From positions 1,825 through 65,824 of the forward strand of contig CAYOCH010000003.1 in the NCBI GenBank assembly GCA_964402535.1: a DNA stretch of 64,000 bases, read 5' to 3'. Position numbers and translations under genes: made by a program. The stretch is from an uncultured Candidatus Saccharibacteria bacterium. Lineage in GTDB: Bacteria; Patescibacteriota; Minisyncoccia; Phycocordibacterales; Phycocordibacteraceae. The notes under the pieces were generated by a model. The model was not told the DNA's origin and searched no databases. It saw only the letters and a program-made list of their open reading frames with translations. This document shows, in pieces, positions 10,472-31,232 of this stretch; the first letter of the stretch is position 1, and the number at the start of each line of letters is the position of its first letter.

Positions 10472-12132
10472 ACACGCGCTTCGCATCAAGGGTGATCGTC
10501 GCACTGCTCGCCGTCGGCATCATCGCTCCGGCGTTCCTCGTGCCGCAGCGCGCGTCGGCACAGGTGGCGAGCGCAGCAGGGGCGGCATCGTGCTTTGCCG
10601 CCGGCGGTGTCGGTCTCGCAGGCGGCGCGGCCTCTGCAGTGCTCTCGGTGCCTGTGAATGACATGGCGAACCTGGCGCAGAACACGTTCACCGCCGGCGC
10701 GACGCAAGGCGACTGCATCAAGAACAACATCATCACGCCGCTCGCACGGCTCATGGCGCGCATCGTGATCCAGCAGATCACGGCGAGCACAATCAACTGG
10801 ATCACCGGGCGTAACGGCACCGGCCAGCCGACGTTCGTGACGAATCTCTCCCTCAATCTGCAGGCCGTCGGCGACGCGGTCGCGCTCTCGTATATCTCTC
10901 GCGTGACGACTGCCTTCAACTCGCCCTTCGGCCCGATGATCGCGCAGTCGCTCCAGCTCCAGTACAACCAGCAGTCGAGCCTCGCAGGCTTCTTCGCAGC
11001 GAATCAGTCCACGCTCAACCGGTGGTCGCCGAATCCGAATGCCTTCCTTTCCGGACAGTGGGCGCAGGGCGGGATCCCTGCGTGGTTCGCGCTCACGACG
11101 CAGACGCAGAACAACCCGTACACGCTGTATCAGGCAGCAGAAGGGCAGCTCAGATCGAACCTCTCTCAAGCAGAGACGAACCGCCGCCAGGACATCGCGC
11201 AAGGGGGCGGCTTCCTCTCGTGGTGCGGCGTGACGGACGCGGCAGCGCAGGATCAGAGCTCCGCAGCCGGCGGAGGCGCCAATCCGGGTGATGCCTGCAC
11301 CAACAGCGACGGAACGCCGGGGACCGTTCAGACACCGGGTTCGGCGATCCACGACTATGCGCAGAAAGCGATCGTCGGCGCCGGGCTCGACCAGCTCGTC
11401 TCGGTGACCGACATAGATCAGGCGCTCGGCGCGATCGCGATGGCGCTCGTCAACCAGGTACTCGGGAATGGCGGTCTCTTGGGCGCCGGCACGCCGCTGC
11501 CGGGGCGGCCGCCGATAACAAACCAGCTCCAGGCCTACTCGGGTGATACGTCCGCGAACACGGGATCCTCGTCGTCGTTCGCCGGCGCGATGCTCTCGCG
11601 CATCACTGCCTACAAGGCCGCGTGGGGGACTATCACCTCCTCGGCGGACGTCGCCTCCTCGAGCCTCAACAGGCTCGTGACCTACTGCAACTCGCAGGCG
11701 ACGGATCCGAACGCGCTGCAGGGGGTGATCAACGCGAATGTCGCAGCGGCGCAGGCGGCGCTCGCGACCGAGGTCGCGCCGATCTACACTCAAGCCGGGC
11801 AGGCGATCGCCGCGACCGACCCGACGAAGGCGCTCGCGCTCAAGGTGCAGGCAGAGTCCTCGAGCGTGACCTCGACAACGACAGCCGCGACGATCGCGGC
11901 GGACACGGGCGTCTTGGCGACCGCCGCCCCGACCGTGAGCGACCTCACATCCGTGCAGCAGAACGCCTCGGTGATGAACGGCGCCAAGGCGAACCCAGCG
12001 GGCTCGCTCACGGTCGCGGGCGGCTCGCTCGTCGATCAGATGAACCTGATCACGACGAACGCGGCGGCGCTCCAGGCCGCCTGCACGCCGAATGCAGCGA
12101 ACGGACCAAGTGTCATCACTCCGACAGGATAA
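10468..12132 (+). CDS. large secreted Ala/Thr/Gln/Asn-rich protein (hypothetical surface protein)
   Basis: 554 aa with a signal peptide (MNTRFASRVIVALLAVGIIAPAFLVPQRASAQVAS) and low-complexity hydrophilic composition; translationally coupled to its neighbours. Confidence 0.6.
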   Translation: MNTRFASRVIVALLAVGIIAPAFLVPQRASAQVASAAGAASCFAAGGVGLAGGAASAVLSVPVNDMANLAQNTFTAGATQGDCIKNNIITPLARLMARIVIQQITASTINWITGRNGTGQPTFVTNLSLNLQAVGDAVALSYISRVTTAFNSPFGPMIAQSLQLQYNQQSSLAGFFAANQSTLNRWSPNPNAFLSGQWAQGGIPAWFALTTQTQNNPYTLYQAAEGQLRSNLSQAETNRRQDIAQGGGFLSWCGVTDAAAQDQSSAAGGGANPGDACTNSDGTPGTVQTPGSAIHDYAQKAIVGAGLDQLVSVTDIDQALGAIAMALVNQVLGNGGLLGAGTPLPGRPPITNQLQAYSGDTSANTGSSSSFAGAMLSRITAYKAAWGTITSSADVASSSLNRLVTYCNSQATDPNALQGVINANVAAAQAALATEVAPIYTQAGQAIAATDPTKALALKVQAESSSVTSTTTAATIAADTGVLATAAPTVSDLTSVQQNASVMNGAKANPAGSLTVAGGSLVDQMNLITTNAAALQAACTPNAANGPSVITPTG

Positions 12133-12133
12133 T

Positions 12134-14479
12134 ATGCGACGCTTCCTTTCAACACTCATCGTGATGGTCGCGCTCATGGGCGCGGCCGGCGCAGCGCCGG
12201 CCGCGTATGCACAGGCCACGGCAGACCCGGGGCTGGACGGCTATGCGACTGACGAGTCAGGCAACGCGTATACGCAAGCGCAAATCGATGCGACCAATGC
12301 GGCCGGCCAAGCCGGCGTCGCGCAGACAGTGCAGCAGATGACGAATCCGAGCGATGCAAAGAAGTCGATCGATCCGAATGCTAGCAAAGACGCCGGCTCC
12401 CAGTACGGCTCTGTGATGACGTGGATCATGACGCTCTTCGCCTGGCTCGTCGGCGTCGCGGCGCTCCTCCTCGACAACGCGGTCTACTTCACCGTCGTGA
12501 AGATGGGCGATTACATCCGCAACCTATCGGCCGTCGGCGTCACGTGGCGGATCCTCCGGGATATCGGGAACATATTCCTCATCTTCGGCTTCATCTTCGG
12601 CGGCATCGCGACGATCCTGAACATGGATATCTACGGCTGGGGCAAGAAGATGCTCCCGATGCTCATCGTCGGTGCCGTGTTCATCAACTTCTCGCTCTTC
12701 TTCGCCGAGGCGGTGATCGACGTCGGCAACCTCTTTGCGACGCAATTCTATACGCAGATCAATGGGGGGCGTGCTTCGAGCCCGCAATCATTCGGTTCCG
12801 GTTTCGGCGTCCGGCTGCAGAATGAAGGGATATCAAACGTGCTGATGGCAAAACTCGGGCTGCAGACCATCTACGGCGATGCAGCGAAGAATACCAAGCT
12901 GTTCAAGGCGGATAACACCTGGGTGATCGGCTTCATGGGCATCCTCCTGTTCATCGTCACGGCTTTCGTCCTCTTCTCGCTCTCGTTCGTGCTTATCGCG
13001 CGCTTCGTGATGCTCCTCTTCATCATAATATTTTCGCCGATCGGGATCGTAGGCCTCGCGGTGCCCAAGCTCGGCAAGCTCGCGAAACAGTGGTGGGATA
13101 CGCTCTTCGAACAGACTGTCACGGCGCCGCTCCTGCTCTTGTGCCTCTATATCGCACTCGCCGTCATCTCTGACGCGTCCTTTCTCTCGAGCGACACGAG
13201 CGCGGTGGGTTGGGTGAACGGCGACTTCCAGGGCTTCGCGAGCTTTATCCTCTCGTTCCTCATCGCGATGGGGCTCTTGCTTGCCGTGGTACTCATCGCT
13301 AAGAAGCTCTCTGCCGCCGGCGCCGACTGGGCATCGCGAACTGCTGGCACGCTCACGTTCAGCGCTACCGCGCTAGGGCTCCGTTATACGGCGGGGAAGG
13401 GTTCGGATGCGCTTGCGCGCAAAGTGCGTGAGAGCAAGACGCTTAACAGCACGGCGCTCGGACGATTCGCTAGTCGGAAAGTTGCAGGCGCGTTCGACTA
13501 TGGCGCGACCGCGAACTATCATATCGGGGCAGCGGCGAACAAGATCCCGGCTCTCTCTGGCATCGACTACGGCAAGACCCACGAGGGTGGGTATCGTGCG
13601 GAGAAGAAGATCACGGAGGAGTACAAGAAGTCTGCCGAGGACGCGCAGAAGGAGGCTGCGAAGAAGGAACGTGCAGCAGAGGTCAAGAGAGCGATGGAGA
13701 GCGCTGATGCGGAGCTGGACGCAGGCACGATTACTCACGACGAGTATGATGCACGAATCTCCCCGCATCTCGCCAAGATGTCAGCAAAAGAGATAGAGGA
13801 TCTCGACGGGATCAAGAAGGGTACTGAAGAACTCGTCAGGAACCTGTCACCACAGCAGTTCGAGGCACTAATGAAGAGCGATAATTTGAGCCAGTCGCAG
13901 AAAGACGGTATCAAAGAGGCTCGCTTTAGGGACGTTACTGCAAAGATTGCGGCGGCGACCGCGCCTGGCGCGGCACCAGCTGTGATCGCGGATGCACAAG
14001 CGGCCGTTGTGAAGTTGAGTAACAAGGAGCTCGCGCATTTGGACTCAAATACCCTCACGAAAGATTTCGTAGCAGATAACCTGACGAATGATCAGTACGA
14101 ATATATCGGTAAGGAAGGCATACTGAGCGGTGCGCAAAAGACGGCGCTCGATGCACGTCGTAAAAACCGGTTCGATCCCGCAATCACGCCGCACAGTGAC
14201 GTGGCGAACGCGATAAGGTCTCTTAAGTGGAATCGAGATCAGATAAGAAAACTTCCGTCCGCGACTGTTACCAATACCGACGTCTTAAATGACCTGGGTT
14301 CGGAAGCGCTTAACCTTATCGATATTGTTCGGACCGGGAACCTTTCCCCGACAGATCGCCGTCGCCTCGGTACGTACTTCGAAGACATAGCAACTCACCC
14401 GACTGACCCGCGACAGGCAGATTTTGCGGCCTACCTTGCGGCCGATCCACGCATAAAGAGAGATCTTCTCATCACGTAA
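12134..14479 (+). CDS. polytopic membrane protein with long charged C-terminal domain (possibly VirB6/TrbL-like; unverified)
   Basis: Signal peptide MRRFLSTLIVMVALMGAAGAAPAAYA, about 6-7 TM helices over residues ~110-420, then a ~370-aa Lys/Glu/Ala-rich coiled-coil-like tail. The ATG is 1 nt after the upstream stop. Confidence 0.6.
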   Translation: MRRFLSTLIVMVALMGAAGAAPAAYAQATADPGLDGYATDESGNAYTQAQIDATNAAGQAGVAQTVQQMTNPSDAKKSIDPNASKDAGSQYGSVMTWIMTLFAWLVGVAALLLDNAVYFTVVKMGDYIRNLSAVGVTWRILRDIGNIFLIFGFIFGGIATILNMDIYGWGKKMLPMLIVGAVFINFSLFFAEAVIDVGNLFATQFYTQINGGRASSPQSFGSGFGVRLQNEGISNVLMAKLGLQTIYGDAAKNTKLFKADNTWVIGFMGILLFIVTAFVLFSLSFVLIARFVMLLFIIIFSPIGIVGLAVPKLGKLAKQWWDTLFEQTVTAPLLLLCLYIALAVISDASFLSSDTSAVGWVNGDFQGFASFILSFLIAMGLLLAVVLIAKKLSAAGADWASRTAGTLTFSATALGLRYTAGKGSDALARKVRESKTLNSTALGRFASRKVAGAFDYGATANYHIGAAANKIPALSGIDYGKTHEGGYRAEKKITEEYKKSAEDAQKEAAKKERAAEVKRAMESADAELDAGTITHDEYDARISPHLAKMSAKEIEDLDGIKKGTEELVRNLSPQQFEALMKSDNLSQSQKDGIKEARFRDVTAKIAAATAPGAAPAVIADAQAAVVKLSNKELAHLDSNTLTKDFVADNLTNDQYEYIGKEGILSGAQKTALDARRKNRFDPAITPHSDVANAIRSLKWNRDQIRKLPSATVTNTDVLNDLGSEALNLIDIVRTGNLSPTDRRRLGTYFEDIATHPTDPRQADFAAYLAADPRIKRDLLIT

Positions 14480-14490
14480 CAGAGATTAAT

Positions 14491-15420
14491 ATGAAAAGTT
14501 ATTCGGATGACGAAATAATTCAGCTGCTCGATCGCATCCCGCCGATTGTTCGGGAGCGCATCACTCGTCCTGAAACAGCACGAATCATTGCATCGATAGG
14601 AAAGAGCAAACAGCTGCATATCGATAAGATCGGCAAGATAGCCGAACTGAATCGAAATGCGCTTCTCGGGCTTATCGGACCGGCTGAATTCGTTCAAGAG
14701 CTCATCGCTTCTGGAATTTCTGACGCAGATGCAAAGAATATTGTCCAACAGATTAACGAACAGATCTTTAAGCCGTTGCGGGACGAGGAGCTGAAGCGAG
14801 GTATTGATGCAGAACCGAAACCGGTAACGCCAGCTCCTGCACCGGCTCCAGCTCCCGCATCGGCGGCGCCACAGGCACCTGTAGCGCAGACGCCAGCGGG
14901 GCAGACAGGCTCATTCTTCCGCCTGCAGAACAAGATTCAGCCGGCGCCCGGTCCGCGAGCGTACACGCCGCCGCCGCAGTCACCGATGTATCGGCGTCCC
15001 GATCAAGAAGATAGCCCGCTGATCATCAAGGTGTCACCGCCCCCGGTCGTGCAGCAGAAGCGGATAGTGCCCGTCTCGAGCGTGCCTGTAGTACCTGTGG
15101 CGGACAAGACAGAAGTGCCGCCGAACCTGCCTGGCGCAATGCCGCCGCGTCCTGTCGCGCCTGCCGCCCCTGCGGTGCCAGTAACACCGGCGTCGTCGGC
15201 TGTGCTTCCGTCAGCGCGGATTGTTGCTCCCGCTGTACCCGCTATGCCCGTCGCTCCGGTCGCACCGCGGCCGGGCACGCCCGCGGCCCCCGTGGCGCCT
15301 CGCCCGATGCAACCGGTGATGCCCGCTGCACCCGCAGCGCCCAAGCCGCCAGCTCCCGCGCCAGCTGCACCTGCGAAGCCCTACGGCGTCGACCCGTACC
15401 GCGAACCGATCGAGCCGTAG
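14491..15420 (+). CDS. hypothetical protein with Pro/Ala-rich C-terminal half
   Basis: 309 aa: structured N-terminal ~110 aa followed by PAPAPAPA.../PVAP repeats. Confidence 0.5.
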   Translation: MKSYSDDEIIQLLDRIPPIVRERITRPETARIIASIGKSKQLHIDKIGKIAELNRNALLGLIGPAEFVQELIASGISDADAKNIVQQINEQIFKPLRDEELKRGIDAEPKPVTPAPAPAPAPASAAPQAPVAQTPAGQTGSFFRLQNKIQPAPGPRAYTPPPQSPMYRRPDQEDSPLIIKVSPPPVVQQKRIVPVSSVPVVPVADKTEVPPNLPGAMPPRPVAPAAPAVPVTPASSAVLPSARIVAPAVPAMPVAPVAPRPGTPAAPVAPRPMQPVMPAAPAAPKPPAPAPAAPAKPYGVDPYREPIEP

Positions 15421-15424
15421 GTGT

Positions 15425-15453
15425 TTGCATTTCCAGCGCTATTCATTTATATT
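15425..15453 (+). promoter_or_regulatory. sigma70-like promoter upstream of rpsL
   Basis: TTGCAT (15425-15430), 17-nt spacer, TATATT (15448-15453). It is followed by a short hairpin GACCCACCGCGGGTC plus a T-tract before the rpsL ATG. Confidence 0.45.
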
Positions 15454-15485
15454 GCACCTGACCCACCGCGGGTCTTCTTTTTCTA

Positions 15486-15893
15486 ATGGCCACCATCAAT
15501 CAGCTCTCACGCAAGGGACGCAAGAACAAGACCTCGAAGACGAGCGTACCGGCGCTCGCTCGCGGCTTTAACGCTCTCAAGAACCGCCCGACTTTCTATG
15601 CGTCGCCCTTCAAGCGCGGCGTCTGCACCAAGGTGACCACCAAGACCCCGCGCAAGCCGAACTCGGCTATCCGCAAGATCGCTCGTGTCCGCCTCACGAA
15701 CGGCATGGAGGTCACGGCTTACATCCCGGGCGAGGGCCACAACCTCCAGGAACACTCGGTGGTGATGCTCCGCGGCGGCCGCGTGAAGGACATCGGCGTG
15801 CAGTACACGATCGTCCGCGGCAAGCTCGACACGGCCGGCCTCGAGAAGCGCCGCCGCTCCCGCTCGCGCTACGGCGCGAAGCGCCCTAAGTAA
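15486..15893 (+). CDS. rpsL: 30S ribosomal protein S12
   Basis: [12 protein letters not shown]...PKKPNSA[I]RK...[15 protein letters not shown], the canonical S12 sequence. Confidence 0.97.
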
Positions 15894-15924: not shown

Positions 15925-16389
15925 ATGCGTCGTCCCCTTAAGAAGCAGCGCACCTGGAAGCCGGATCTCAAGTACGGATCTGAGACGCTGACCCGTTTCA
16001 TCAACGCCGTCATGTGGAGCGGCAAGAAGGATGTCGCGCGCGCCGTCGTCTACGATGCGCTCGCCGTGATCGAGAAGGAGGGTGCGAACCCGCTCGAGAC
16101 GTTTGAATCGGCATTGCGAAACGTCTCTCCCTTGATGGAGGTGCGTTCTCGCCGCGTCGGCGGTGCCAACTACCAGGTGCCCCGCGAGGTGCCGCAGGCC
16201 CGCCGCCTCGCACTCTCGTTCCGCTGGCTCATCAACGCCGCCCGCTCGAAGAAGGGTAAGCCGATGGCAGAGAAGCTCGCCGCGGAGCTCCTCCTCGCCG
16301 CCAAGAACGAGGGCGATGCGATCAAGAAGAAGGACGAGATGCACCGCATGGCGGATGCGAACAAGGCTTTCGCCCACTTCGCCTGGTAG
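15925..16389 (+). CDS. rpsG: 30S ribosomal protein S7
   Basis: 154 aa with a conserved S7 core (SPLMEVRSRRVGGANYQVP). Confidence 0.95.
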   Translation: MRRPLKKQRTWKPDLKYGSETLTRFINAVMWSGKKDVARAVVYDALAVIEKEGANPLETFESALRNVSPLMEVRSRRVGGANYQVPREVPQARRLALSFRWLINAARSKKGKPMAEKLAAELLLAAKNEGDAIKKKDEMHRMADANKAFAHFAW

Positions 16390-16457
16390 CCGTCTTCAAC
16401 CGGCGCTTGTCGGTCCCTGTCGAGTTCAAGGTCGAGTCGTGAGTGTTCGGCAATCAA

Positions 16458-16484
16458 AAGGCGGGAGCGATCCCGCCTTTTCTA
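16458..16484 (+). terminator. intrinsic terminator after rpsG
   Basis: GGCGGGAGCGATCCCGCC stem followed by TTTTCT. Confidence 0.7.
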
Positions 16485-16490
16485 TTTAGT

Positions 16491-16520
16491 AAAAAAGAGC
16501 GGCTCCACAGAGCCGCTTTA
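16491..16520 (-). terminator. intrinsic terminator of the opposite-strand orphan gene
   Basis: GAGCGGCTC-caca-GAGCCGCTT stem with an A-run on + (a U-run on the minus transcript), 13 nt past the minus-strand stop. Confidence 0.6.
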
Positions 16521-16532
16521 TGTGATCGAACA

Positions 16533-17039
16533 TCATTCGAGGATTCTCCCGCCGCTCTCTTCGAGCGAGACATATGTGTAGAGGGCGTCGAGCTGGTCTT
16601 GGGTCCTGGTGCTCGAGTTCCCGTTTGCTGCCCGCGCTTTGCCGATCGTTTCGATCACACCCGGTATGTTCTTTGCGAGCGCATCCCTGAGCTCCTTCGT
16701 CACCGCGTCGAGCCCATAGCGATGCCAGACTTGCAGCAGCGGCTTCAGGTCGACGGCGATGATCGGGACGATCACATTTGTCTCGGCGCGGCAGAGCCAG
16801 AGCTGGCCGAAACGGCGTTCGATGCCATAGTTTTCGCGCGGGTCGGAGCCGGCCGGGTACGGCACGATCGTCATGAAGATCTCGATGGCTAGCGGGGCTG
16901 GGAGCGCGATCTCCTGCAGCGCTTTGTGGAGCGGGCTGAAGACGTTCGGCCCTGGCGGTACGGTGAACGTATCCCGCGCCATACTCTCGACGGTGATGAC
17001 GTCTTCGGCATGGTAGTTCTGTCTGCGCACGAGTCGCAT
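16533..17039 (-). CDS. hypothetical protein (orphan gene inserted between rpsG and fusA on the opposite strand)
   Basis: 168 aa with GC3-rich codon usage, a strong SD (GAAGGAGGG) 4 nt upstream of the ATG on the minus strand, and its own terminator. No recognisable family. Confidence 0.65.
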
Positions 17040-17162
17040 GGTCCCTCCTTCGGTTGGTGTGTAGGTGCAGCCGCCTCGACTCTACCAGCTCCTTGGCATT
17101 TTCGCCATCTTCAGGTATTCTTCACTCGACGCCCAAGCGGCTTTTATTTTTATTCATCACTT

Positions 17163-19310
17163 ATGACCCGCGACTATCCTCTCGAACGAGTGCGCAACTT
17201 CGGCATCATCGCCCACATCGACGCCGGCAAGACGACGACCTCCGAGCGCGTCCTCTACTACACTGGCGCGCAGCACAAGATCGGCGAGGTGCACGAGGGC
17301 GAGACGACGACCGACTGGATGGAGCAGGAGCGTGAGCGCGGCATCACGATCACGGCGGCCGCCATCACCTGCTTCTGGAGCAAGACGGCCGAGAAGGATA
17401 AGAAGGACACCTCCAAGAAGTTCCGTTTCAATATCATCGACACGCCGGGACACATCGACTTCACCGCCGAGGTGAAGCGTTCGATGCGCGTGCTTGACGG
17501 CGCGGTCGTCGTGTTCGACGGCGTCGCGGGCGTCGAGCCGCAGTCCGAGACGAACTGGCGCTACGCCGACGAGGCGAACGTGCCGCGCATCTGCTTTATC
17601 AACAAGCTCGACCGCACGGGCGCATCCTTCGAGAAGTCGTACGCCTCGATCCTTGACCGGCTCTCGCCGAAGGCGATCCGCATGCAGATCCCGATCGGCG
17701 AAGAGGCGCAGCACGAAGGCGTCGTCGACCTCCTCACGATGAAGGCGTTCCGCTTTGAGGGCTCGATGGGCGACGAGGTGATCGAGGGCGAAATCCCCGA
17801 GAATCTGCTCGAGGACGCTAAGAAGTACCGCGCCGAGCTCGTGGAGCGCATCGTCGAGCAGGACGACGCCGCGATGAACGCCTACCTCGAGGGCAAGGAG
17901 CCGTCAGTTGATGAGCTCAAGGCGATCCTGCGCAAGGCCGTGATCGTGAACGCCGTCTTCCCGGTTTACACCGGCTCGGCGCTTAAGAACAAGGGCGTGC
18001 AGCTCGTCCTCGACGCTGTCGTCGACTTCCTCCCGTCACCGCTCGAGCTCCCGGCTGTGACCGGCACCAACCCGAAGACCGGTGAGGCGATCGAGCGCCA
18101 CGCGAATGACGACGAGCCATTCTGCGCGCTCGCCTTCAAGCTTCAGACCGACCCGTTCGTCGGCGCGCTGACCTTCTTCCGCGTCTACTCGGGCTCTGTC
18201 TCGGCAGGTTCGTATATCTACAACTCGACGACCGGCACCAAGGAGCGCTTGGGCCGCATTGTCCGCCTCCAGGCCGACAAGCGCGAGGAGGTGCAGCAGG
18301 TCTTCACCGGCGAGATCGCCGCTGCCGTGGGCCTCAAGGACACCAAGACCTCGCACACGCTCTGCGACGAGGCGAACCCGATCGTGCTCGAGGAGATCAA
18401 GTTCCCCGAGCCGGTGGTGTCGCTCCGCATCGAGCCCAAGACGAAGGCCGACCAGGAGAAGATGGGCGTCGCGCTCAGGAAGCTTAGCGACGAGGACCCG
18501 ACCTTCCGCATCAAGACCGACGAAGAGACCAACGAGACGATCATCTCGGGCATGGGCGAGCTCCATCTCGAGATCCTCGTGGACCGCATGAAGCGCGAGT
18601 TCAACGTCGAGGCGAATGTGGGCAAGCCGCAGGTGGCCTACCGCGAGACGATCCAGGGCGCTGCAGACGCCGAGGGCAAGTACATCAAGCAGACCGGCGG
18701 CCGCGGCCAGTACGGTCACGTGAAGATCAAGATGAAGAAGCTCGAGCCGATCGAGGAGGGCGCCAAGATCGCCAAGAACACGACGCGCGAGGATCACTTC
18801 GAGTTCATCAACAACATCAAGGGCGGCGTGGTGCCGCAGGAGTACATCCCGGCGGTAGAGAAGGGCGTCCGCGAGGCGATGTCGCGCGGCTTCTTGGCCG
18901 GCTTCCCGATGGTGGATATCTCGATCGACCTCTACGACGGCTCCTATCACGATGTAGACTCCTCCGAGATCGCCTTCAAGATCGCGGCGTCGATGGCGTT
19001 CCAGGAGGCGGCCGGCAAGGCCAAGGCGGTCATCCTCGAGCCGATCATGCGCGTCGAGGTGGTGGTGCCGGAGCAGTTCATGGGCGACGTCACAGGCTCG
19101 CTCTCGGGCAAGCGCGGTCAGATAGAAGGGATGGAAGATAGGGGGATGAACAAGGCGATCCACGCCAAGGTGCCGCTCTCGGAGATGTTCGGCTACACGA
19201 CGACGCTCCGCTCGATGACCGAGGGCCGCGGCTCGATGACGATGGAGTTCGACCACTACGACGTGGTCCCGAACAACGTCGCGACCGAGATCATCGCCAG
19301 CCGCAAGTAG
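17163..19310 (+). CDS. fusA: elongation factor G
   Basis: [31 protein letters not shown]... with G-domain motifs ([12 protein letters not shown]). The ORF extends upstream to 16926, but the conserved N-terminus starts at the ATG at 17163. Confidence 0.96.
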
Positions 19311-19321
19311 CTCATACAAGA

Positions 19322-19358
19322 AACAACCCGGCGCCCTTTGGGCGCCGGGTTGTTGTGT
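19322..19358 (+). terminator. hairpin after fusA
   Basis: AACAACCCGGCGCCC-tttg-GGCGCCGGGTTGTT. Confidence 0.6.
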
Positions 19359-19463
19359 GCTACACTGCCCGCACATGCAGACAAGGAACTTCTTTGGCGC
19401 GTATTACTTTACCGGCTCGTCCGGAAGGTTGATCCGCGCGTAGGAAGATTCCCACCCACAGAT

Positions 19464-19496
19464 CAGCCCTCCGGACGGAGGGCTGAGTTCTTTTTA
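19464..19496 (+). terminator. hairpin plus U-tract immediately upstream of a small zinc-ribbon gene (terminator or attenuator)
   Basis: CAGCCCTCCG-gac-GGAGGGCTG followed by AGTTCTTTTT, 13 nt before the SD of the 19509 gene. Confidence 0.55.
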
Positions 19497-19508
19497 GGGA
19501 GGTTCGGT

Positions 19509-19694
19509 ATGGAGATAGAGAAGGACGAGAAGCACTGCCCGCAGCATGGGCCGATGACACACTTCGATCATGTGACGGATACGGAGACCGGCGCGATGCG
19601 GAAATATCGCTGCCAGTCGTGCGCGTTTACCGCCACCGTCGAAGTGCCGCTGCCGTCGTACGTACGGCGCAAAGAGAAGGCACAATGCGCCTGA
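19509..19694 (+). CDS. small zinc-ribbon protein (hypothetical, 61 aa)
   Basis: SD GGGAGG 7 nt upstream of the ATG. C-x2-H...C-x2-C (HCPQHG...CQSC). Followed by hairpin ACACCCCGC-ttcg-GCGGGGTG plus a T-tract at 19698-19730. Confidence 0.55.
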   Translation: MEIEKDEKHCPQHGPMTHFDHVTDTETGAMRKYRCQSCAFTATVEVPLPSYVRRKEKAQCA

Positions 19695-19794
19695 CCTACA
19701 CCCCGCTTCGGCGGGGTGCTTTCTTTACTTTCATGAGAAGGGGAGTAAGGTCATAGATACCCATATTCTGGGTCAACAACGAAGGAGGTGCATC

Positions 19795-20034
19795 TTGAAG
19801 AAAATCCTTTTTTCGCTCTTTTCCGTCATCGCTGCACTCGCCATCGCCTTGCCCGCGCTCGCCGCGAACCACGCGAGCGGCACCATAACTGCCGCGGCGC
19901 CTACGGTCATCGCCGCTGCCGAGAAGGCAAAGCCCGCCGCGAAAGCGACGAAAGCTAAACCCGCCACGGCCAAGAAGGCCAAGGCCGGCAAGTCGAAGGC
20001 CAAGGCAAAAGCGAAGCCAAAAGCGAAGGCCTGA
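19795..20034 (+). CDS. small secreted Lys/Ala-rich (histone-H1-like tail) protein
   Basis: TTG start with SD GAAGGAGGTG 5 nt upstream; signal peptide MKKILFSLFSVIAALAIALPALA; C-terminal KAKPAAKATKAKPATAKKAKAGKSKAKAKAKPKAKA; strong terminator just downstream. Confidence 0.6.
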   Translation: MKKILFSLFSVIAALAIALPALAANHASGTITAAAPTVIAAAEKAKPAAKATKAKPATAKKAKAGKSKAKAKAKPKAKA

Positions 20035-20055
20035 CGCGGCGATCAGGCGAGCAAC

Positions 20056-20090
20056 AAAAAGCGGAGGTCATGCACCTCCGCTTTTTCTTA
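20056..20090 (+). terminator. intrinsic terminator
   Basis: AAAAAGCGGAGGT-catgc-ACCTCCGCTTTTTCTTATC. Confidence 0.8.
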
Positions 20091-20243
20091 TCTTGCGTTT
20101 TTATGAAGGGTCGGTTACCTTTAATCCCAACGCATCTTGGCGTCGCTCTTTGGCTCGTCGGCTGAATTCTCACTGCGGGCCGGGGGTGTTTTCCGACTCG
20201 CGTCGGATTATTAATTCGTGATTTAGAAACGTAATTACCGATT

Positions 20244-21443
20244 ATGGCAGAATTCAATCGTGCGAAGCCGCACATGAACGTGGGCACCATCGGCCACGTC
20301 GACCACGGCAAGACGACTCTCACCGCCGGCATCCTCCACGTCCTCGATATGTTGAAGGGCGAGGGCTATGGCGCCCGCGTCGAAGGCGTCGACAAGATCG
20401 ACAGCGCTCCTGAAGAGAAGGCGCGCGGTATCACTATCGCGCTCCACCACTCGGAGTATGAGTCGCCGAACCGCCACTACGCGCACATCGACGCTCCGGG
20501 CCACGCAGACTACATCAAGAACATGATCACGGGAGCCGCCCAGATGGACGGCGCAGTCCTCGTGGTCGCCGCGACCGACGGCGTGATGCCGCAGACGCGC
20601 GAGCACATCCTCCTCGCGAAGCAGGTGGGCCTTAAGAAGCTCATCGTCTTCCTCAACAAGGTGGACATGGTCGCCGAGGCAGACCTCATCGACCTCGTCG
20701 AAGAGGAGATCCGCGAGCTTCTCACGAAGCAGGGCTACGACGGCGCGAACACACCGATCATCCGCGGCTCGGGCTTGAAGGCCCTCGAGTCGAAGGACGT
20801 GAACGATGAATACGCTAAGAAGGCGAAGGAGCTCGTCGACACGATGGACTCCTACTTCGACCTCCCGAAGCGTGAGACGGATAAGCCGTTCCTCATGCCG
20901 ATCGAGGACATCTTCTCGATCGAAGGCCGCGGCACCGTGGTGACCGGCCGCATCGAGCGCGGCGTGATCAAGGTCGGCGAGGAAGTCGAGATCGTCGGCA
21001 TCAAGCCGACGGCCAAGACGACCGTCACCGGCATCGAGATGTTCAACAAGCAGCTCCAGGAGGGCCAGGCAGGCGACAACGCCGGCATCCTCCTGCGCGG
21101 CACGAAGAAGGAGGACGTGCACCGCGGCCAGGTGCTCGCGAAGACCGGTTCGGTCACGCCGCACACGGACTTCGAGGCAGAGGTCTTCGTCCTCTCGAAG
21201 GATGAAGGCGGCCGCCACACGCCGTTCTTCTCGGGCTACAAGCCGCAGTTCTACATCCGCACGACGGACGTGACCGGCGAGGTCACCCTGCCGGACGGCA
21301 AGGAGATGGTGATGCCGGGCGACACGGTCACCTTCAAGGTGAAGCTCACCGCGCCGGTCGCGCTCGAAGAGCAGCAGCACTTCGCGATCCGCGAAGGCGG
21401 CAAGACCGTTGGCGCCGGCGTCGTGACCAAGATCACCGCCTAA
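20244..21443 (+). CDS. tuf: elongation factor Tu
   Basis: 399 aa with [20 protein letters not shown] and NKVD motifs. Confidence 0.98.
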
Positions 21444-21831: not shown

Positions 21832-21849
21832 CCCGAGCGCAGTCGAGGG
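21832..21849. repeat. 18-nt repeat CCCGAGCGCAGTCGAGGG (copy 1, immediately after the rpsJ stop)
   Basis: An identical 18-mer recurs at 36923-36940. Confidence 0.6.
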
Positions 21850-21866
21850 TTCTAACCGCCAAGAGA

Positions 21867-21906
21867 ACACGCAACCGCCCCTCGGGGCGGTTGCGTGTTT
21901 TATTTG
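21867..21906 (+). terminator. intrinsic terminator after rpsJ
   Basis: ACACGCAACCGCCCC-tcg-GGGCGGTTGCGTGT followed by TTTATTT. Confidence 0.8.
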
Positions 21907-21943
21907 GTGCTATCCTACCGGCAGATGTCACGAGGAGATTCAC

Positions 21944-22126
21944 ATGGATTGGATCGACTACGCGCTTGAAGAAGAGAAGAGCCGGGAGCGGAAGAAAGCG
22001 GAAGCGAAAAGAGGCGGCGTGAAGAAGCAGCAGAACCCGGTGCCAGTTGCGCCCGTCGAAACGCTCCCTGATGTTCCCGATTTGTCCCATAACCACATCG
22101 ATTGGATCCCAGTCGACGAACAGTAA
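21944..22126 (+). CDS. small hypothetical protein (60 aa)
   Basis: SD GAGGAG upstream of the ATG; charged KKAEAKR core; begins DWIDYA and ends DWIPVDEQ; followed by a hairpin at 22128-22160. Confidence 0.4.
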   Translation: MDWIDYALEEEKSRERKKAEAKRGGVKKQQNPVPVAPVETLPDVPDLSHNHIDWIPVDEQ

Positions 22127-22214
22127 CCAAGGCCGCGTCTGGAGCACGCGGCCTTTGCATTTGGCGCTCTGCGTCCGGCCTGGTACACTCGCTCGCGGAA
22201 AGGGGGGCACACCT

Positions 22215-22484
22215 ATGCCTATCAGTTGGATGGAACAGCTGGAACTTGACGAGACGCACACAACCTCGAGGGAGACTGCATTGGCTAAAGAACAACCGTA
22301 CATTGTCGCTGGGATCAAGAACTACTTCGGCGGTACTGGCGAGCTTGGCGTAGAGCTCGGCACATTTCGCACTGTTGAGTTTGCGCTCCACGCGCGCGAA
22401 GCGATACTCAAGCTCGCGATAAAAAAGGGCTGGTCGGGCCGTCGCGGAATATTCCAGAACGGGAAGCTGATCAAAGAGATCTGA
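22215..22484 (+). CDS. small hypothetical protein (89 aa)
   Basis: ATG preceded by GAAAGGGGGG; followed by a strong terminator at 22501-22530 (AAAGGCAGGCCCCGGCCTGCCTTTTTTATT). Confidence 0.45.
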   Translation: MPISWMEQLELDETHTTSRETALAKEQPYIVAGIKNYFGGTGELGVELGTFRTVEFALHAREAILKLAIKKGWSGRRGIFQNGKLIKEI

Positions 22485-22500
22485 CAGCACATTCGCAGTG

Positions 22501-22530
22501 AAAGGCAGGCCCCGGCCTGCCTTTTTTATT
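22501..22530 (+). terminator. intrinsic terminator
   Basis: GGCAGGCC-ccg-GCCTGCC stem followed by TTTTTTATT. Confidence 0.8.
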
Positions 22531-22557
22531 GACAGCGTACTCAGACTATTTTATAAT
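22529..22557 (+). promoter_or_regulatory. consensus sigma70 promoter (TTGACA-17-TATAAT)
   Basis: TTGACA at 22529-22534, exact 17-nt spacer, TATAAT at 22552-22557; it drives the small gene at 22589. Confidence 0.6.
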
Positions 22558-22588
22558 AGTCAAACCATGTTCCTTTCGGAGTCATAGC

Positions 22589-22882
22589 ATGTCGAGAAAT
22601 CGATTTAGGGAGGCGCAGGCCTCGCAGTCATTGGTGCGCGTTGGAGGAATAATGTCGGCGTATATGTTGACCGCTCGCCTGAATGCTCTGGGCGGGACCT
22701 CAGCAATCCGTCCGAAGTTCTGGGGAAACGAGCAATTGCTTCAGGAGTATGCACGGCGGAGGGCTGCGTTGAGCTGGCCAGAGCAGAGTCTCGTCGTGCA
22801 GGAAGTTCTCGAAAACGCCAGGCACAATCTCAAACTAATCGAAAAAGAAATCTTGCGTCGCATGAATGCGAAAGCCCGCTGA
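22589..22882 (+). CDS. small hypothetical protein (97 aa)
   Basis: The ATG at 22589 has GGAG 8 nt upstream and a consensus promoter ~30 nt upstream; lower GC; no known motif. Confidence 0.45.
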   Translation: MSRNRFREAQASQSLVRVGGIMSAYMLTARLNALGGTSAIRPKFWGNEQLLQEYARRRAALSWPEQSLVVQEVLENARHNLKLIEKEILRRMNAKAR

Positions 22883-23008
22883 TCGGCGGGTTTTCTGTTT
22901 CCTTGCATGATTTTTCGTTCTCGTGTAGAGTGCCTCCATCGCTACGACCCCATGCGGGTCCTCCAGCAAATCGCGCACCAGCGATTGCTGGCGCGCGATT
23001 TCTATCAA

Positions 23009-25579: not shown

Positions 25580-25618
25580 AAATCGCCCGCGGCGTCCGCC
25601 GCGGGCGATTTCTTTTAC
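25580..25618. terminator. bidirectional intrinsic terminator after rplB
   Basis: AAATCGCCCGCGG-cgtc-CGCCGCGGGCGATTT with T-tracts on both sides. Confidence 0.75.
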
Positions 25619-26376
25619 TATCGGTACGCCGGTTTGAGGACTGAAGAGAGCTCGGAGAGGGGGATACGGACTGTCTGGGGGCCGGCAGCATAGGGGCCAG
25701 CCTGATAGGGGGCGAAGAGGATCACGAATTCGCGGTTGTCGAAGAAGAAATCGGCAAAATTCTTAGCATCTGGCGCGGTGCCGGCGTTGATCTGCTCGGT
25801 ATCGGCGTTGGGCGCCTGTGCGGCGGCGATCTGGCTGCGCGAGATCGAAGAGAGCGTGTCCAGGTAGTCGCCCTGGAAGATGTCGGAGAGCGCGAGCGCC
25901 TTGCCGGTCTTGGTGTCGAAGGTGAAGGTCGCGAACGTCGTGTTGCCGTGCGCGCCGAGCGTGTCGGCGTAGACCGTGAAGATGTACGAGATGGTGCGTG
26001 ACGACGAGCCGATCAGGTAGACGATGTTCAAGGTCTGTTTGCGTCCCCGATCGTAGCCCATCACGCGGATGTCGCGCGGCGAGAGGTTGTCGAAACGACC
26101 GTCGGTCTTGAACTGCGCGATCGTGTCGCGGATGAAGGTATACAGCTGCGAGCGCGCTGCGGCGTCTGCTGCTGGTGCAAGCGGCGTTGAGGTCGCGTAA
26201 TTTGCCGAGATATCGTAGTACTTCGCGCTCTCTTCGTAGTGGCCGGGCGGGAGCACTATCGCGGACGGGTTCTCGCCCGGGGCGACGGCCGGGGCAGGGC
26301 GGAGGAATGCGTAGGCGGCCAAGAGGGCGGCGATGACGATGGCAAAGATGGTCAGGAGGGTGGTTTTCTGCGGCAT
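25618..26376 (-). CDS. membrane-anchored hypothetical protein (possibly DUF3298/RsiV-like fold), opposite-strand insertion between rplB and rpsS
   Basis: About 252 aa with an N-terminal TM helix (TLLTIFAIVIAALLAAYAFL) and GC3-rich codons. Possible starts are the ATG at 26376 or the GTG at 26394. Family assignment is weak. Confidence 0.55.
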   Translation of the reverse strand: MPQKTTLLTIFAIVIAALLAAYAFLRPAPAVAPGENPSAIVLPPGHYEESAKYYDISANYATSTPLAPAADAAARSQLYTFIRDTIAQFKTDGRFDNLSPRDIRVMGYDRGRKQTLNIVYLIGSSSRTISYIFTVYADTLGAHGNTTFATFTFDTKTGKALALSDIFQGDYLDTLSSISRSQIAAAQAPNADTEQINAGTAPDAKNFADFFFDNREFVILFAPYQAGPYAAGPQTVRIPLSELSSVLKPAYR

Positions 26377-26398
26377 ATGAGGCGAGTGTACCACCGGG

Positions 26399-26464: not shown

Positions 26465-26806
26465 ATGGCACGCTCACTCAAGAAGGGACCATTCGTGGAC
26501 GCAAAGCTCCTCAAGAAGGTCGCTCTCAAGAAACCGGCATCCGCCGGGGTCATCAAGACGTGGGCGCGCCGGAGTCAGATCAGCCCGGAAATGGTCGGAT
26601 TCACCTTCGGCGTCCACAACGGCAAGAGCCATGTGGAGGTCCTCGTCTCTGAGGAGATGGTGGGACACCGCCTCGGCGAATTCTCGCCGACCAAGAAGTT
26701 CATGCGCCACGGCGGCAAGATGCAGAAGGAGCTCGAGGCCAAGAAGCAGCAGGCCGAAATCACCGCAGCCAAGGCCGCCAAGGAGGCGCCGGCCGCTAAG
26801 AAATAA
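26465..26806 (+). CDS. rpsS: 30S ribosomal protein S19 (Lys/Ala-rich C-terminal extension)
   Basis: [12 protein letters not shown]...[10 protein letters not shown] core plus a [21 protein letters not shown] tail. Confidence 0.95.
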
Positions 26807-30011: not shown

Positions 30012-30281
30012 ATGGCTAAAACATCCCAGCTGGCGCGCCTCGCAAAGAAGGCGAAACTCGTCAAGAAGTACGCGGCAAAGCGTGCTGCCTTGAAGGCTGC
30101 CGGGGATTCAGAAGGCCTCCAGAAGCTCCCCCGCAACTCCTCGCCGGTCCGCTTGAAGAACCGCTGCGCTATCACCGGCCGCTCGCGCGGCTATATGCGC
30201 ACGTTCGGCCTCTCGCGCATCAAGTTCCGCGAGCTCGCACGCGAGGGCAAGATCCCGGGCGTTAAGAAAGCATCATGGTAA
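30012..30281 (+). CDS. rpsN: 30S ribosomal protein S14 (long, non-zinc type)
   Basis: 89 aa with the [42 protein letters not shown]-terminus. Confidence 0.93.
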
Positions 30282-30691
30282 CTGACCGCGTCGGCGATTT
30301 CATCATCCGTCTCCAGAATGCCGCCCTTATCGGCAAGGCAGACGTCGTTGTCGCGCACTCGAGCCATCTCGAGGCGATCGCACGCAAGCTCCGTGAGCTC
30401 GGTTTCATCACCGTAGTCGAGGTCGTCGCGCCCGCCGCAGGCGGGTCCGCCTCCGGCGGAAAGCGGACGCTGGTTGCAAAACTTGCCTACGACGAGCGCG
30501 GCGTCGCCAAGCTCCGCGGCGTGAAGCGCATCTCGAAGCCGGGCCGCCGCCTCTATGTCGGCGCAGCCGACGCGCACACGGTGAAGGGCGGCACGGGCGC
30601 GCGCCTCATCTCGACCTCTGCTGGCGTGATTTCCGACAAGGAGGCGCGCAAGGAGGGCAAGGGCGGCGAGAATCTCTTCGAGATCTGGTAA
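30275..30691 (+). CDS. rpsH: 30S ribosomal protein S8 (internal GGSASGGK loop)
   Basis: [16 protein letters not shown] and the C-terminal GGENLFEIW match S8; a loop between beta-strands carries [11 protein letters not shown]. Confidence 0.94.
30440..30463 (+). repeat. 24-nt GGSASGGK-coding segment, copy 2 (rpsH loop)
   Basis: GGCGGGTCCGCCTCCGGCGGAAAG. Confidence 0.7.
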
Positions 30692-30701
30692 CTGTTTACG
30701 T

Positions 30702-31232
30702 ATGTCCCGCCTCGCTAAGAAACCTATAGCAGTCGGAAAGGCCGAAGTCTCGGTCGCCGGAGGCGTGCTCACCGTGAAGGGCCCGAAGGGCACCCTCACG
30801 AAGCGCGTCCATCCGACCGTCTCGGTCACGGTCGAGAACGGCGGGGTCATGATCGCGCCGAAGGACAGCTCACGCCTCGCAAAGGCACTCACGGGCACCT
30901 TCGCCTCGCATGTGAAGAACATGATCACGGGCGTCGAGACGCCGTATGTGAAGAAGCTCGTCCTCGACGGCGTCGGCTACCGCATGGAGGTGAAAGGGAA
31001 GGAGGTCGTCCTCACGGTCGGCTTCTCGCACACGGTGCCGGTCGCGATCCCCGAGGACATCACCGCCAAGGTCGAGAAGAACGTGATGACGCTCGAGTCG
31101 ATCAACAAGGAGTCCGTCGGCCAGTTCGCCGCCGATATCCGTCGCATCAAGCCGCCGGAGCCGTACCTCGGCAAGGGCATCCATTATGAGGGCGAGGTGA
31201 TCCGCCGCAAGCAGGGCAAGAAGGCCGTCTAA
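30702..31232 (+). CDS. rplF: 50S ribosomal protein L6
   Basis: MSRLAKKPIAVGKAEVSVAGGVLTVKGPKG, canonical L6. Confidence 0.96.
   Translation: MSRLAKKPIAVGKAEVSVAGGVLTVKGPKGTLTKRVHPTVSVTVENGGVMIAPKDSSRLAKALTGTFASHVKNMITGVETPYVKKLVLDGVGYRMEVKGKEVVLTVGFSHTVPVAIPEDITAKVEKNVMTLESINKESVGQFAADIRRIKPPEPYLGKGIHYEGEVIRRKQGKKAV

Follow-up and report, generated by a model that had tools for sequence, protein, structure and literature searches.

The window, by which we mean the whole stretch of 64,000 nucleotides of DNA that was analysed, comes from a high-GC Patescibacteria genome and includes genes in the str order. The ribosomal protein S7 that it encodes shares 95% identity with its counterpart in a Candidatus Paceibacterota MAG and 93-94% with those in Candidatus Kaiserbacteria MAGs. 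In brief, rpsL, rpsG, fusA and tuf follow each other on the plus strand, and a gene of 168 codons, here named orf168 (product P0001), is located on the minus strand between rpsG and fusA (Table 1). The gap between rpsG and fusA spans 773 bp. orf168 takes up 507 bp of it, and the remaining 143 bp and 123 bp hold the terminators and the promoter region. We place the start of fusA at its ATG and rejected the GTG at 16926 that a mechanical list of open reading frames gives. A plus-strand open reading frame at 16443-16892 was also rejected as a gene; its GC contents at codon positions 1/2/3 are 0.75/0.43/0.57 and its codon log-odds score is about 0. Rfam and tRNA scans of the whole window were empty, and the 16S rRNA gene lies outside the window.

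On the 5' side of rpsL there is a promoter-like site (15424-15453) followed by a 5' hairpin and a U-rich leader. The open reading frame directly upstream (14491-15420) encodes a 309-aa Pro/Ala-rich protein that belongs to no Pfam family and has atypical codon statistics (GC3 0.60). It is preceded by a gene for a 795-aa multi-pass membrane-like protein (12092-14479).

Table 1. Genes and predicted signals around orf168 and at other interruptions of the ribosomal gene cluster, in window coordinates.
Feature	Position	Strand	Remarks
rpsL (S12)	15486-15893	+	first gene of the rpsL-rpsG unit; PF00164
rpsG (S7)	15925-16389	+	31 nt 3' of rpsL; PF00177
Intrinsic-terminator-like hairpin and T-rich tail	16456-16489	+	closes the predicted rpsL-rpsG unit
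Intrinsic-terminator-like hairpin and TTTTTT	16490-16517	-	16 nt past the orf168 stop codon
orf168 (P0001)	16533-17039	-	168 aa; ATG is the first start codon past the upstream stop
Shine-Dalgarno sequence GAAGGAGGG	17043-17051	-	3 nt 5' of the orf168 ATG
Candidate extended -10 of orf168, TGGTAGAGT	17079-17087	-	putative; back to back with the fusA -35
fusA promoter-like site TTGGCA-17-TATTCT	17093-17121	+	fits the clade-wide motif TTGCwTTTT ... TATTsT
fusA leader	17130-17162	+	small GC hairpin, UUUUAUUUUU, A/U/C-rich stretch, no Shine-Dalgarno sequence
fusA (EF-G)	17163-19310	+	715 aa; ATG at 17163
tuf	20244-21443	+	
Open reading frames in the rpsJ-rplC gap	21944-22126, 22215-22484, 22652-22882		no Pfam family
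DUF3298 gene	25618-26394	-	258 aa; inserted between rplB and rpsS
245-aa open reading frame	30191-30928	-	GC3 0.74 (coding-type); no Pfam or PADLOC family

The original prediction described a terminator at the end of rpsG, a 168-aa minus-strand gene with a strong Shine-Dalgarno (SD) sequence and a terminator of its own, and a separate fusA promoter, and each of these elements was recovered. The hairpin on the rpsG side (16456-16481, plus strand) is strong, with an 11-bp stem and a GAGC loop region followed by CTATTT. The hairpin on the orf168 side (16517-16498, minus strand) has an 8-bp stem (8-10 bp) followed by CTTTTTT and is convergent with the rpsG terminator. The region 16440-16530 is predicted to form far more stable structures than shuffled sequence does, with z-scores of -4.6 and -4.2 for the two strands, and the 5.1-kb region as a whole has 19 terminator-like sites where 4.6 are expected. 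orf168 is led by the SD site AAGGAGGG, and its 5' UTR is predicted to be unstructured around it. The promoter-like site of fusA consists of the hexamers TTGGCA (17093-17098) and TATTCT (17116-17121), separated by a 17-nt spacer.

orf168 is a real gene, because GC content by codon position and codon log-odds are of the coding type in one frame only, and because it has a homologue of 31% identity (see below). The GC contents at codon positions 1/2/3 are 0.63/0.43/0.79, compared with 0.62/0.43/0.85 for rpsG. The codon log-odds score is +0.32, which is positive, as for both rpsG and fusA; none of the other five frames of the interval exceeds +0.13. The GC content of the gene does not differ from that of its flanks, and we found no paralogue within the window.

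The predicted product is a soluble protein of 18.8 kDa with a pI of 5.95, and no hydrophobic segment is long enough to span a membrane. It had been described as a protein without a recognisable motif. This description is borne out by searches of Pfam, NCBIfam, PADLOC and PHROGs, which gave no family, housekeeping or otherwise. Two PHROG matches, with E values of 0.26 and 0.38, were rejected as they are weak and to different families. A sequence search of the PDB returned coiled-coil noise only, and we saw no resemblance to any known EF-G-binding or ribosome-associated family. An AF2 model of the single sequence reached a pLDDT of 40, and a model built from orf168 and its homologue reached a pLDDT of 56 and a pTM of 0.55; the latter, which is of poor quality, points to three strands and, after them, three helices. 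Searches of PDB and BFVD by Foldseek with the model of pLDDT 56 gave nothing with E < 0.04. No fold can be assigned to the protein, since the predicted structures are too poor.

An exhaustive phmmer search of 1.84 billion representatives gave a single relative, P0002, a protein of 173 aa (E = 2e-7). BLASTP aligns the two with 31% identity over 150 aa, from residue 30 of the 168 residues of the orf168 product to the C-terminus, where both proteins have the motif SGGxxLE. In this comparison of two sequences only, 47 positions are invariant, and they are concentrated in residues 30-110. P0002 matched no family in Pfam, PADLOC or PHROGs. Searches with P0002 or with a profile of the two sequences gave no third member in the protein database, metagenome contigs, viral contigs, or phage and plasmid records. 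In a word-indexed search of 5.8 billion protein clusters, the only match was orf168 itself, on two contigs, and repeated searches of this kind gave self matches only. The two contigs, from Logan, are 100% identical to the window and therefore hold no polymorphism information. The family has two members among the approximately 15 billion proteins searched.

The gene for P0002 is found on one contig only, L083 (1369 bp), which has the N-terminus of EF-G on the opposite strand at one end and the C-terminus of S7 (ending NKAFAHFAW) at the other. Read towards fusA, rpsG is followed by a glyoxalase-family gene (PF00903), the gene for P0002 and then fusA, with both inserts on the opposite strand. The only known relative of orf168 is thus also located between rpsG and fusA, where it adjoins fusA and is divergent from it, as orf168 is. 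It has the SD sequence GGGAGGA at the equivalent place and a terminator-like hairpin of its own, and the intergenic DNA between it and fusA can be aligned with that between orf168 and fusA in the window. We place the two in one family based on their significant similarity, which extends to the C-terminus, and their common position.

The two proteins have diverged far faster than their neighbours, with 31% identity compared with 72-94% (mostly 80-90%) for EF-G across related genomes. The region 5' of fusA in L083 is 86% identical to those of the related loci L031 and L048 and 79% identical to that of the window, and the contig has a GC content of 53% versus approximately 60% for the window. Judged from these sequences, the hosts of the two genes do not form a pair of sister taxa. 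Since they are not closest relatives, vertical inheritance of the family would imply that it was lost many times, and the gene may instead have been transferred to the same slot long ago.

In most bacteria, the boundary between rpsG and fusA lies inside a single operon, rpsL-rpsG-fusA-tufA. We compared S7 loci from 80 related species, and the rpsG-fusA gap could be measured in 69 Paceibacteria loci. The rpsL-rpsG junction is tight, with a median gap of 13.5 nt and less than 150 nt in 78 of the 80 loci. The rpsG-fusA junction has a median of 507 nt and ranges from 5 to 5719 nt; 41 of the 69 loci have a gap of 400 nt or more, and 18 have one of 1 kb or more. The fusA-tuf junction has a median of 802 nt, and 32 of 39 loci have 400 nt or more. 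The uncoupling of rpsG from fusA, which had been presented as exceptional, is the norm in this clade. A strict scan detected a terminator directly 3' of rpsG in only 10 of 63 relatives, and we therefore do not claim the rpsG terminator for the clade as a whole.

We did not find a relative of orf168 in the loci of the 80 related species, either by tblastn or by a profile search of the 91 open reading frames of at least 60 aa in their gaps. DNA remnants of orf168 were likewise absent from the gaps of the 69 relatives, where tblastn, blastn and tblastx matched the fusA promoter and leader only. The 91 gap open reading frames, some of which are probably not genes, occur in both orientations, and 67 of them are singletons at E = 1e-4. 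Among those with a Pfam family, Peptidase_M15_4 and NlpC/P60 with SH3 were found in four loci each. The following were found in one locus each: GcpE, CofD, an enzyme of the phosphoglucomutase type (phosphoglucosamine-mutase type), PEBP, a histidine kinase/response regulator, RNHCP, a pilin-like Laminin_G_3 protein, PIF1/AAA_30, SocA_Panacea, PIN and HicA. The same core genes thus flank a content that differs across related genomes, as in a variable slot, and the placement of orf168 is ordinary for its lineage.

A pair of likely cell-wall hydrolases recurs in the gaps of the more distant relatives L058, L064, L067 and L068 (and L061), and this is the only pair of gene families that we found in the slot of several genomes. 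By reading the sequences against the family counts, we assign the PIN-domain protein to L012 (6662-7048) and the HicA-like protein, with an upstream partner, to L050 (6509-7080). The SocA/Panacea protein is assigned in the same way to L045 (2840-3705), where it is followed by a 125-aa protein that is 77% identical to one encoded by L034 (1278-1652).

Approximately 75 nt on the 5' side of fusA are conserved in most relatives regardless of the size of the gap, as seen in an alignment of window positions 17088-17165 with the corresponding regions of 46 relatives (alignment A3, loci L003-L078). The clade pattern consists of TTGCwTTTT, approximately 17 nt, TATTsT, a hairpin of the form AACGC-YNMG-GCG, the U-run UUUUAUUUUU, a further 10-15 nt or so, and the ATG, with no SD sequence. 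The T/A/T of the -10 element is invariant across the 46 aligned relatives, and a regular-expression form of the promoter matched in 40 of 63 loci. The leader hairpin is weak in the window (-3.5 kcal/mol). Across the alignment it has 89% pairing, no better than shuffles, and no compensatory changes, so covariation speaks neither for nor against it; the conservation is mainly one of sequence. We suggest that fusA has its own promoter throughout the clade, which would make its uncoupling from rpsG older than orf168.

The same arrangement, in which a promoter, a 5' hairpin and a U-rich leader come before the ATG, is seen at rpsL (15424-15488), and a hairpin with a U-rich leader is also seen before the starts at 26465 and 36190. 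In some relatives, an element of approximately 70 nt with an internal A/T-rich hairpin and CGCTCGCTTGGTAGTA-like ends lies just 5' of fusA and replaces the usual promoter region. By eye, it has one orientation in L004, L006, L007 and L033 and the opposite one in L028, L034, L067 and L068. An exact-pattern search matched L006, L007 and L028 only, and the element is absent from the window.

In the window, the terminator at 16456-16481 and the promoter-like site at 17093-17121 intervene between rpsG and fusA, which would not be expected of a classical co-transcribed str operon. On sequence grounds, the rpsG-fusA junction is an operon boundary that tolerates gene turnover, because the gap is variable, the rpsL-rpsG junction is tight, and the promoter and leader of fusA are conserved at any gap size.

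The extended -10 listed in Table 1 is a candidate promoter for orf168 itself, and the block GGAGCTGGTA is common to the window and L083. A minus-strand extended -10 on the 5' side of fusA is not significantly enriched among relatives with an adjacent minus-strand gene (5 of 17, compared with 4 of 33; p = 0.24). The divergent arrangement could mean that orf168 encodes a factor linked to fusA or to translation, e.g. a regulator or partner of EF-G, co-regulated through divergent promoters in a shared control region of approximately 55 bp. In agreement with this, both family members are divergent neighbours of fusA, directly 5' of it, in a slot that is hypervariable in other respects, and the intergenic DNA of the window and L083 is homologous, with GGAGCTGGTA, ACCTAyACA and, further on, CAACCG and the SD sequence. 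However, these are two observations only, and shared ancestry alone accounts for the common position. The 80 related species without orf168 keep the same fusA promoter and leader, and the protein resembles none of the known EF-G-binding or ribosome-associated families. We consider such a link to fusA unlikely.

The position of orf168 had also been taken as typical of selfish or defence cargo, such as a toxin or an abortive-infection effector. The descriptive part of this idea stands: orf168 is an inserted opposite-strand orphan with back-to-back terminators and a separate promoter for fusA. The functional part found support in none of our tests, and the slot of the relatives holds housekeeping genes, cell-wall hydrolases and, mostly, orphans. 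No direct or inverted repeats flank orf168, no mobility gene is present at the locus, and GC content and codon use are native. A tblastn search of 50,697 phage and 72,556 plasmid records gave no match, and neither did a profile search of viral contigs with the two family members. In these respects orf168 does not resemble the cargo of a mobile element.

It does not resemble a type II toxin-antitoxin module either. orf168 is a single gene with no partner at the locus, and the gene for P0002 is likewise followed by its own terminator. We found no toxin or antitoxin domain in P0001 (Pfam, NCBIfam, PADLOC) or in P0002 (Pfam, PADLOC), and none of the HMMs of PADLOC-DB 2.0 matched P0001 at E <= 10 or P0002 at E <= 1. 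A solitary toxin, an abortive-infection or other defence effector, or an orphan immunity protein in a hotspot might still look like this. The family is tiny and fast-diverging, the gene would be monocistronic with strong predicted expression signals, and PIN, HicA and SocA/Panacea proteins occur in the same slot of relatives, in one locus each. The toxin-antitoxin domains of these few relatives and the fast divergence keep the idea weakly alive. Against it, the 773-bp gap has no room for a partner gene, the protein has no membrane segment, its composition is native, neither family member matches a defence, Pfam or PHROG family (nor, for orf168, an NCBIfam family), relatives among phages, plasmids and viral contigs were not found, and the content of the slot is mostly unrelated to defence. 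We therefore regard a defence role as quite improbable.

The SD sequence of orf168 stands out in its genome. Among the 62 heuristically called gene starts in the window, 58 have no SD-like motif, and typical leaders are A/U-rich. The intergenic starts with GGAGG-type motifs are those of orf168 and several small open reading frames in gaps. In the relatives, GGAGG-led starts are rare overall, and SD-led starts are not significantly enriched among the gap open reading frames (6 of 85 versus 30 of 766; p = 0.16). We therefore do not generalise the pattern. An anti-SD sequence was detected in only 48% of Parcubacteria 16S genes (Tsurumaki et al., PMC9297842). The difference between core genes without SD sequences and a few small inserted genes that have them could be informative on translation initiation in Parcubacteria. 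It is conceivable, if a long shot, that orf168 and P0002 are the first members of a divergent partner of EF-G or of translation (a regulator or a toxin-like modulator) that is specifically retained beside fusA, and that they also belong to a distinct class of small genes that have an SD sequence and are interspersed among core translation genes that have none. If true, this would point to a separate regime of translation initiation for inserted genes, in a lineage of the Parcubacteria, part of which are reported to have no anti-SD sequence.

That orf168 is a non-functional or decaying frame, the remnant of an old insertion no longer under selection, would agree with its absence from all 80 related species sampled and with its lack of a recognisable domain, but we find this highly improbable given the intact frame of 168 codons, the coding-type codon statistics, the intact predicted expression signals, and a full-length homologue with 47 invariant positions clustered in the core.

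Based on these observations, we suggest that orf168 is probably a genuine, independently expressed and lineage-restricted accessory gene in a clade-variable slot of Kaiserbacteria/Paceibacteria, and not a toxin or defence effector. The str operon of the clade would be split into separate units, rpsL-rpsG, fusA and tuf, with fusA read from its own conserved promoter through a U-rich leader without an SD sequence. The stretch from the end of rpsG to the fusA promoter would then be an inter-operon boundary, where genes may be gained, lost or replaced without disturbing either neighbour. In the window, the convergent terminators would insulate the 3' side of orf168, and transcription of the gene probably starts from a promoter back to back with that of fusA. 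Translation would use the strong SD sequence, unusual in an SD-poor genome. The product is predicted to be a soluble, mildly acidic protein of approximately 19 kDa, with a central, conserved beta-rich core (residues ~30-110) and a helical C-terminal part that ends in SGGxxLE. Our reading is that it is probably an accessory protein of the cytoplasm, that it is dispensable, and that its gene was inherited vertically in the slot and lost or replaced in most relatives. It should be noted that accessory protein denotes a category and not a mechanism, and that a family of two makes conservation analysis thin.

The ribosomal cluster of the window is interrupted at other places as well. The fusA-tuf gap (19311-20243, 933 nt) has two small SD-led open reading frames, each followed by a terminator-like hairpin. 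The first (19509-19694) encodes a 61-aa CxxH...CxxC zinc-ribbon-like peptide with a weak match to DUF7838 (E = 0.006), and the second (19795-20034), which has a TTG start, codes for a protein of 79 aa, whose N-terminus resembles a signal peptide and whose tail is rich in Lys and Ala. The S10 cluster is interrupted between rpsJ and rplC (21832-22906, 1075 nt) by three small open reading frames. Read by eye, all three have a G-rich SD-like motif, and a hairpin and a T-run come after each; on the plus strand, the terminator scanner reported only the hairpin of the last one. A perfect TTGACA-17-TATAAT is located in the same gap at 22529-22557. The inserted DUF3298 gene and rplB are convergent, with a perfect bidirectional terminator of 14 bp (25580-25611) between them. 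Given the similar interruptions at fusA-tuf, rpsJ-rplC and rplB-rpsS, orf168 is one among several in the ribosomal cluster. The neighbours of the 245-aa open reading frame on the minus strand also appear to be members of the ribosomal protein cluster.

On its own, orf168 is one more uncharacterised orphan gene of the CPR, and its context is more informative. In Kaiserbacteria/Paceibacteria the universally conserved str operon appears to be split into autonomous units, and the rpsG-fusA and fusA-tuf junctions behave as slots of gene turnover, which cautions against taking an insertion in a ribosomal operon of these lineages as a sign of selfish or defence cargo. A locus anchored by S7 and EF-G is also easily aligned, which makes it suited for studying the origin, divergence and loss of orphan genes in reduced symbiont genomes.

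Compared with the classical str operon of E. coli and Salmonella, the order rpsL, rpsG, fusA, tuf is kept here, with the S10 cluster next. The differences are the predicted terminator 3' of rpsG, the promoter and leader of fusA and apparently of tuf, and the intervening genes, some of them on the opposite strand. Brandis et al. (2019, PMC6735719) argue that neutral insertions in the translation supercluster are limited to the space between the end of one unit, i.e. its terminator, and the next promoter, and they note that the genes inserted in this way often have no connection with mobility. The present locus is similar in that a terminator precedes the insertion and a promoter follows it and that the inserts are mostly not associated with mobility, and a clade-wide promoter of fusA would fit the same argument. 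As in the variable slots or hotspots of other genomes, the flanking core genes (rpsG and fusA) are constant and the content differs in nearly every related genome; unlike these, the rpsG-fusA slot has no integrase, tRNA or repeat, and small orphan open reading frames dominate instead of islands. The type II toxin-antitoxin genes of some relatives (PIN/VapC, HicA, SocA-Panacea) are also small genes in this hotspot, whereas orf168 is single, has its own terminator and has neither a toxin-antitoxin domain nor an adjacent partner. orf168 is similar in character to the ORFans of CPR/Patescibacteria in being small, fast-diverging, patchily distributed and without a detectable family; it differs from them in having a positional orthologue and unusually explicit predicted expression signals, including a strong SD sequence.
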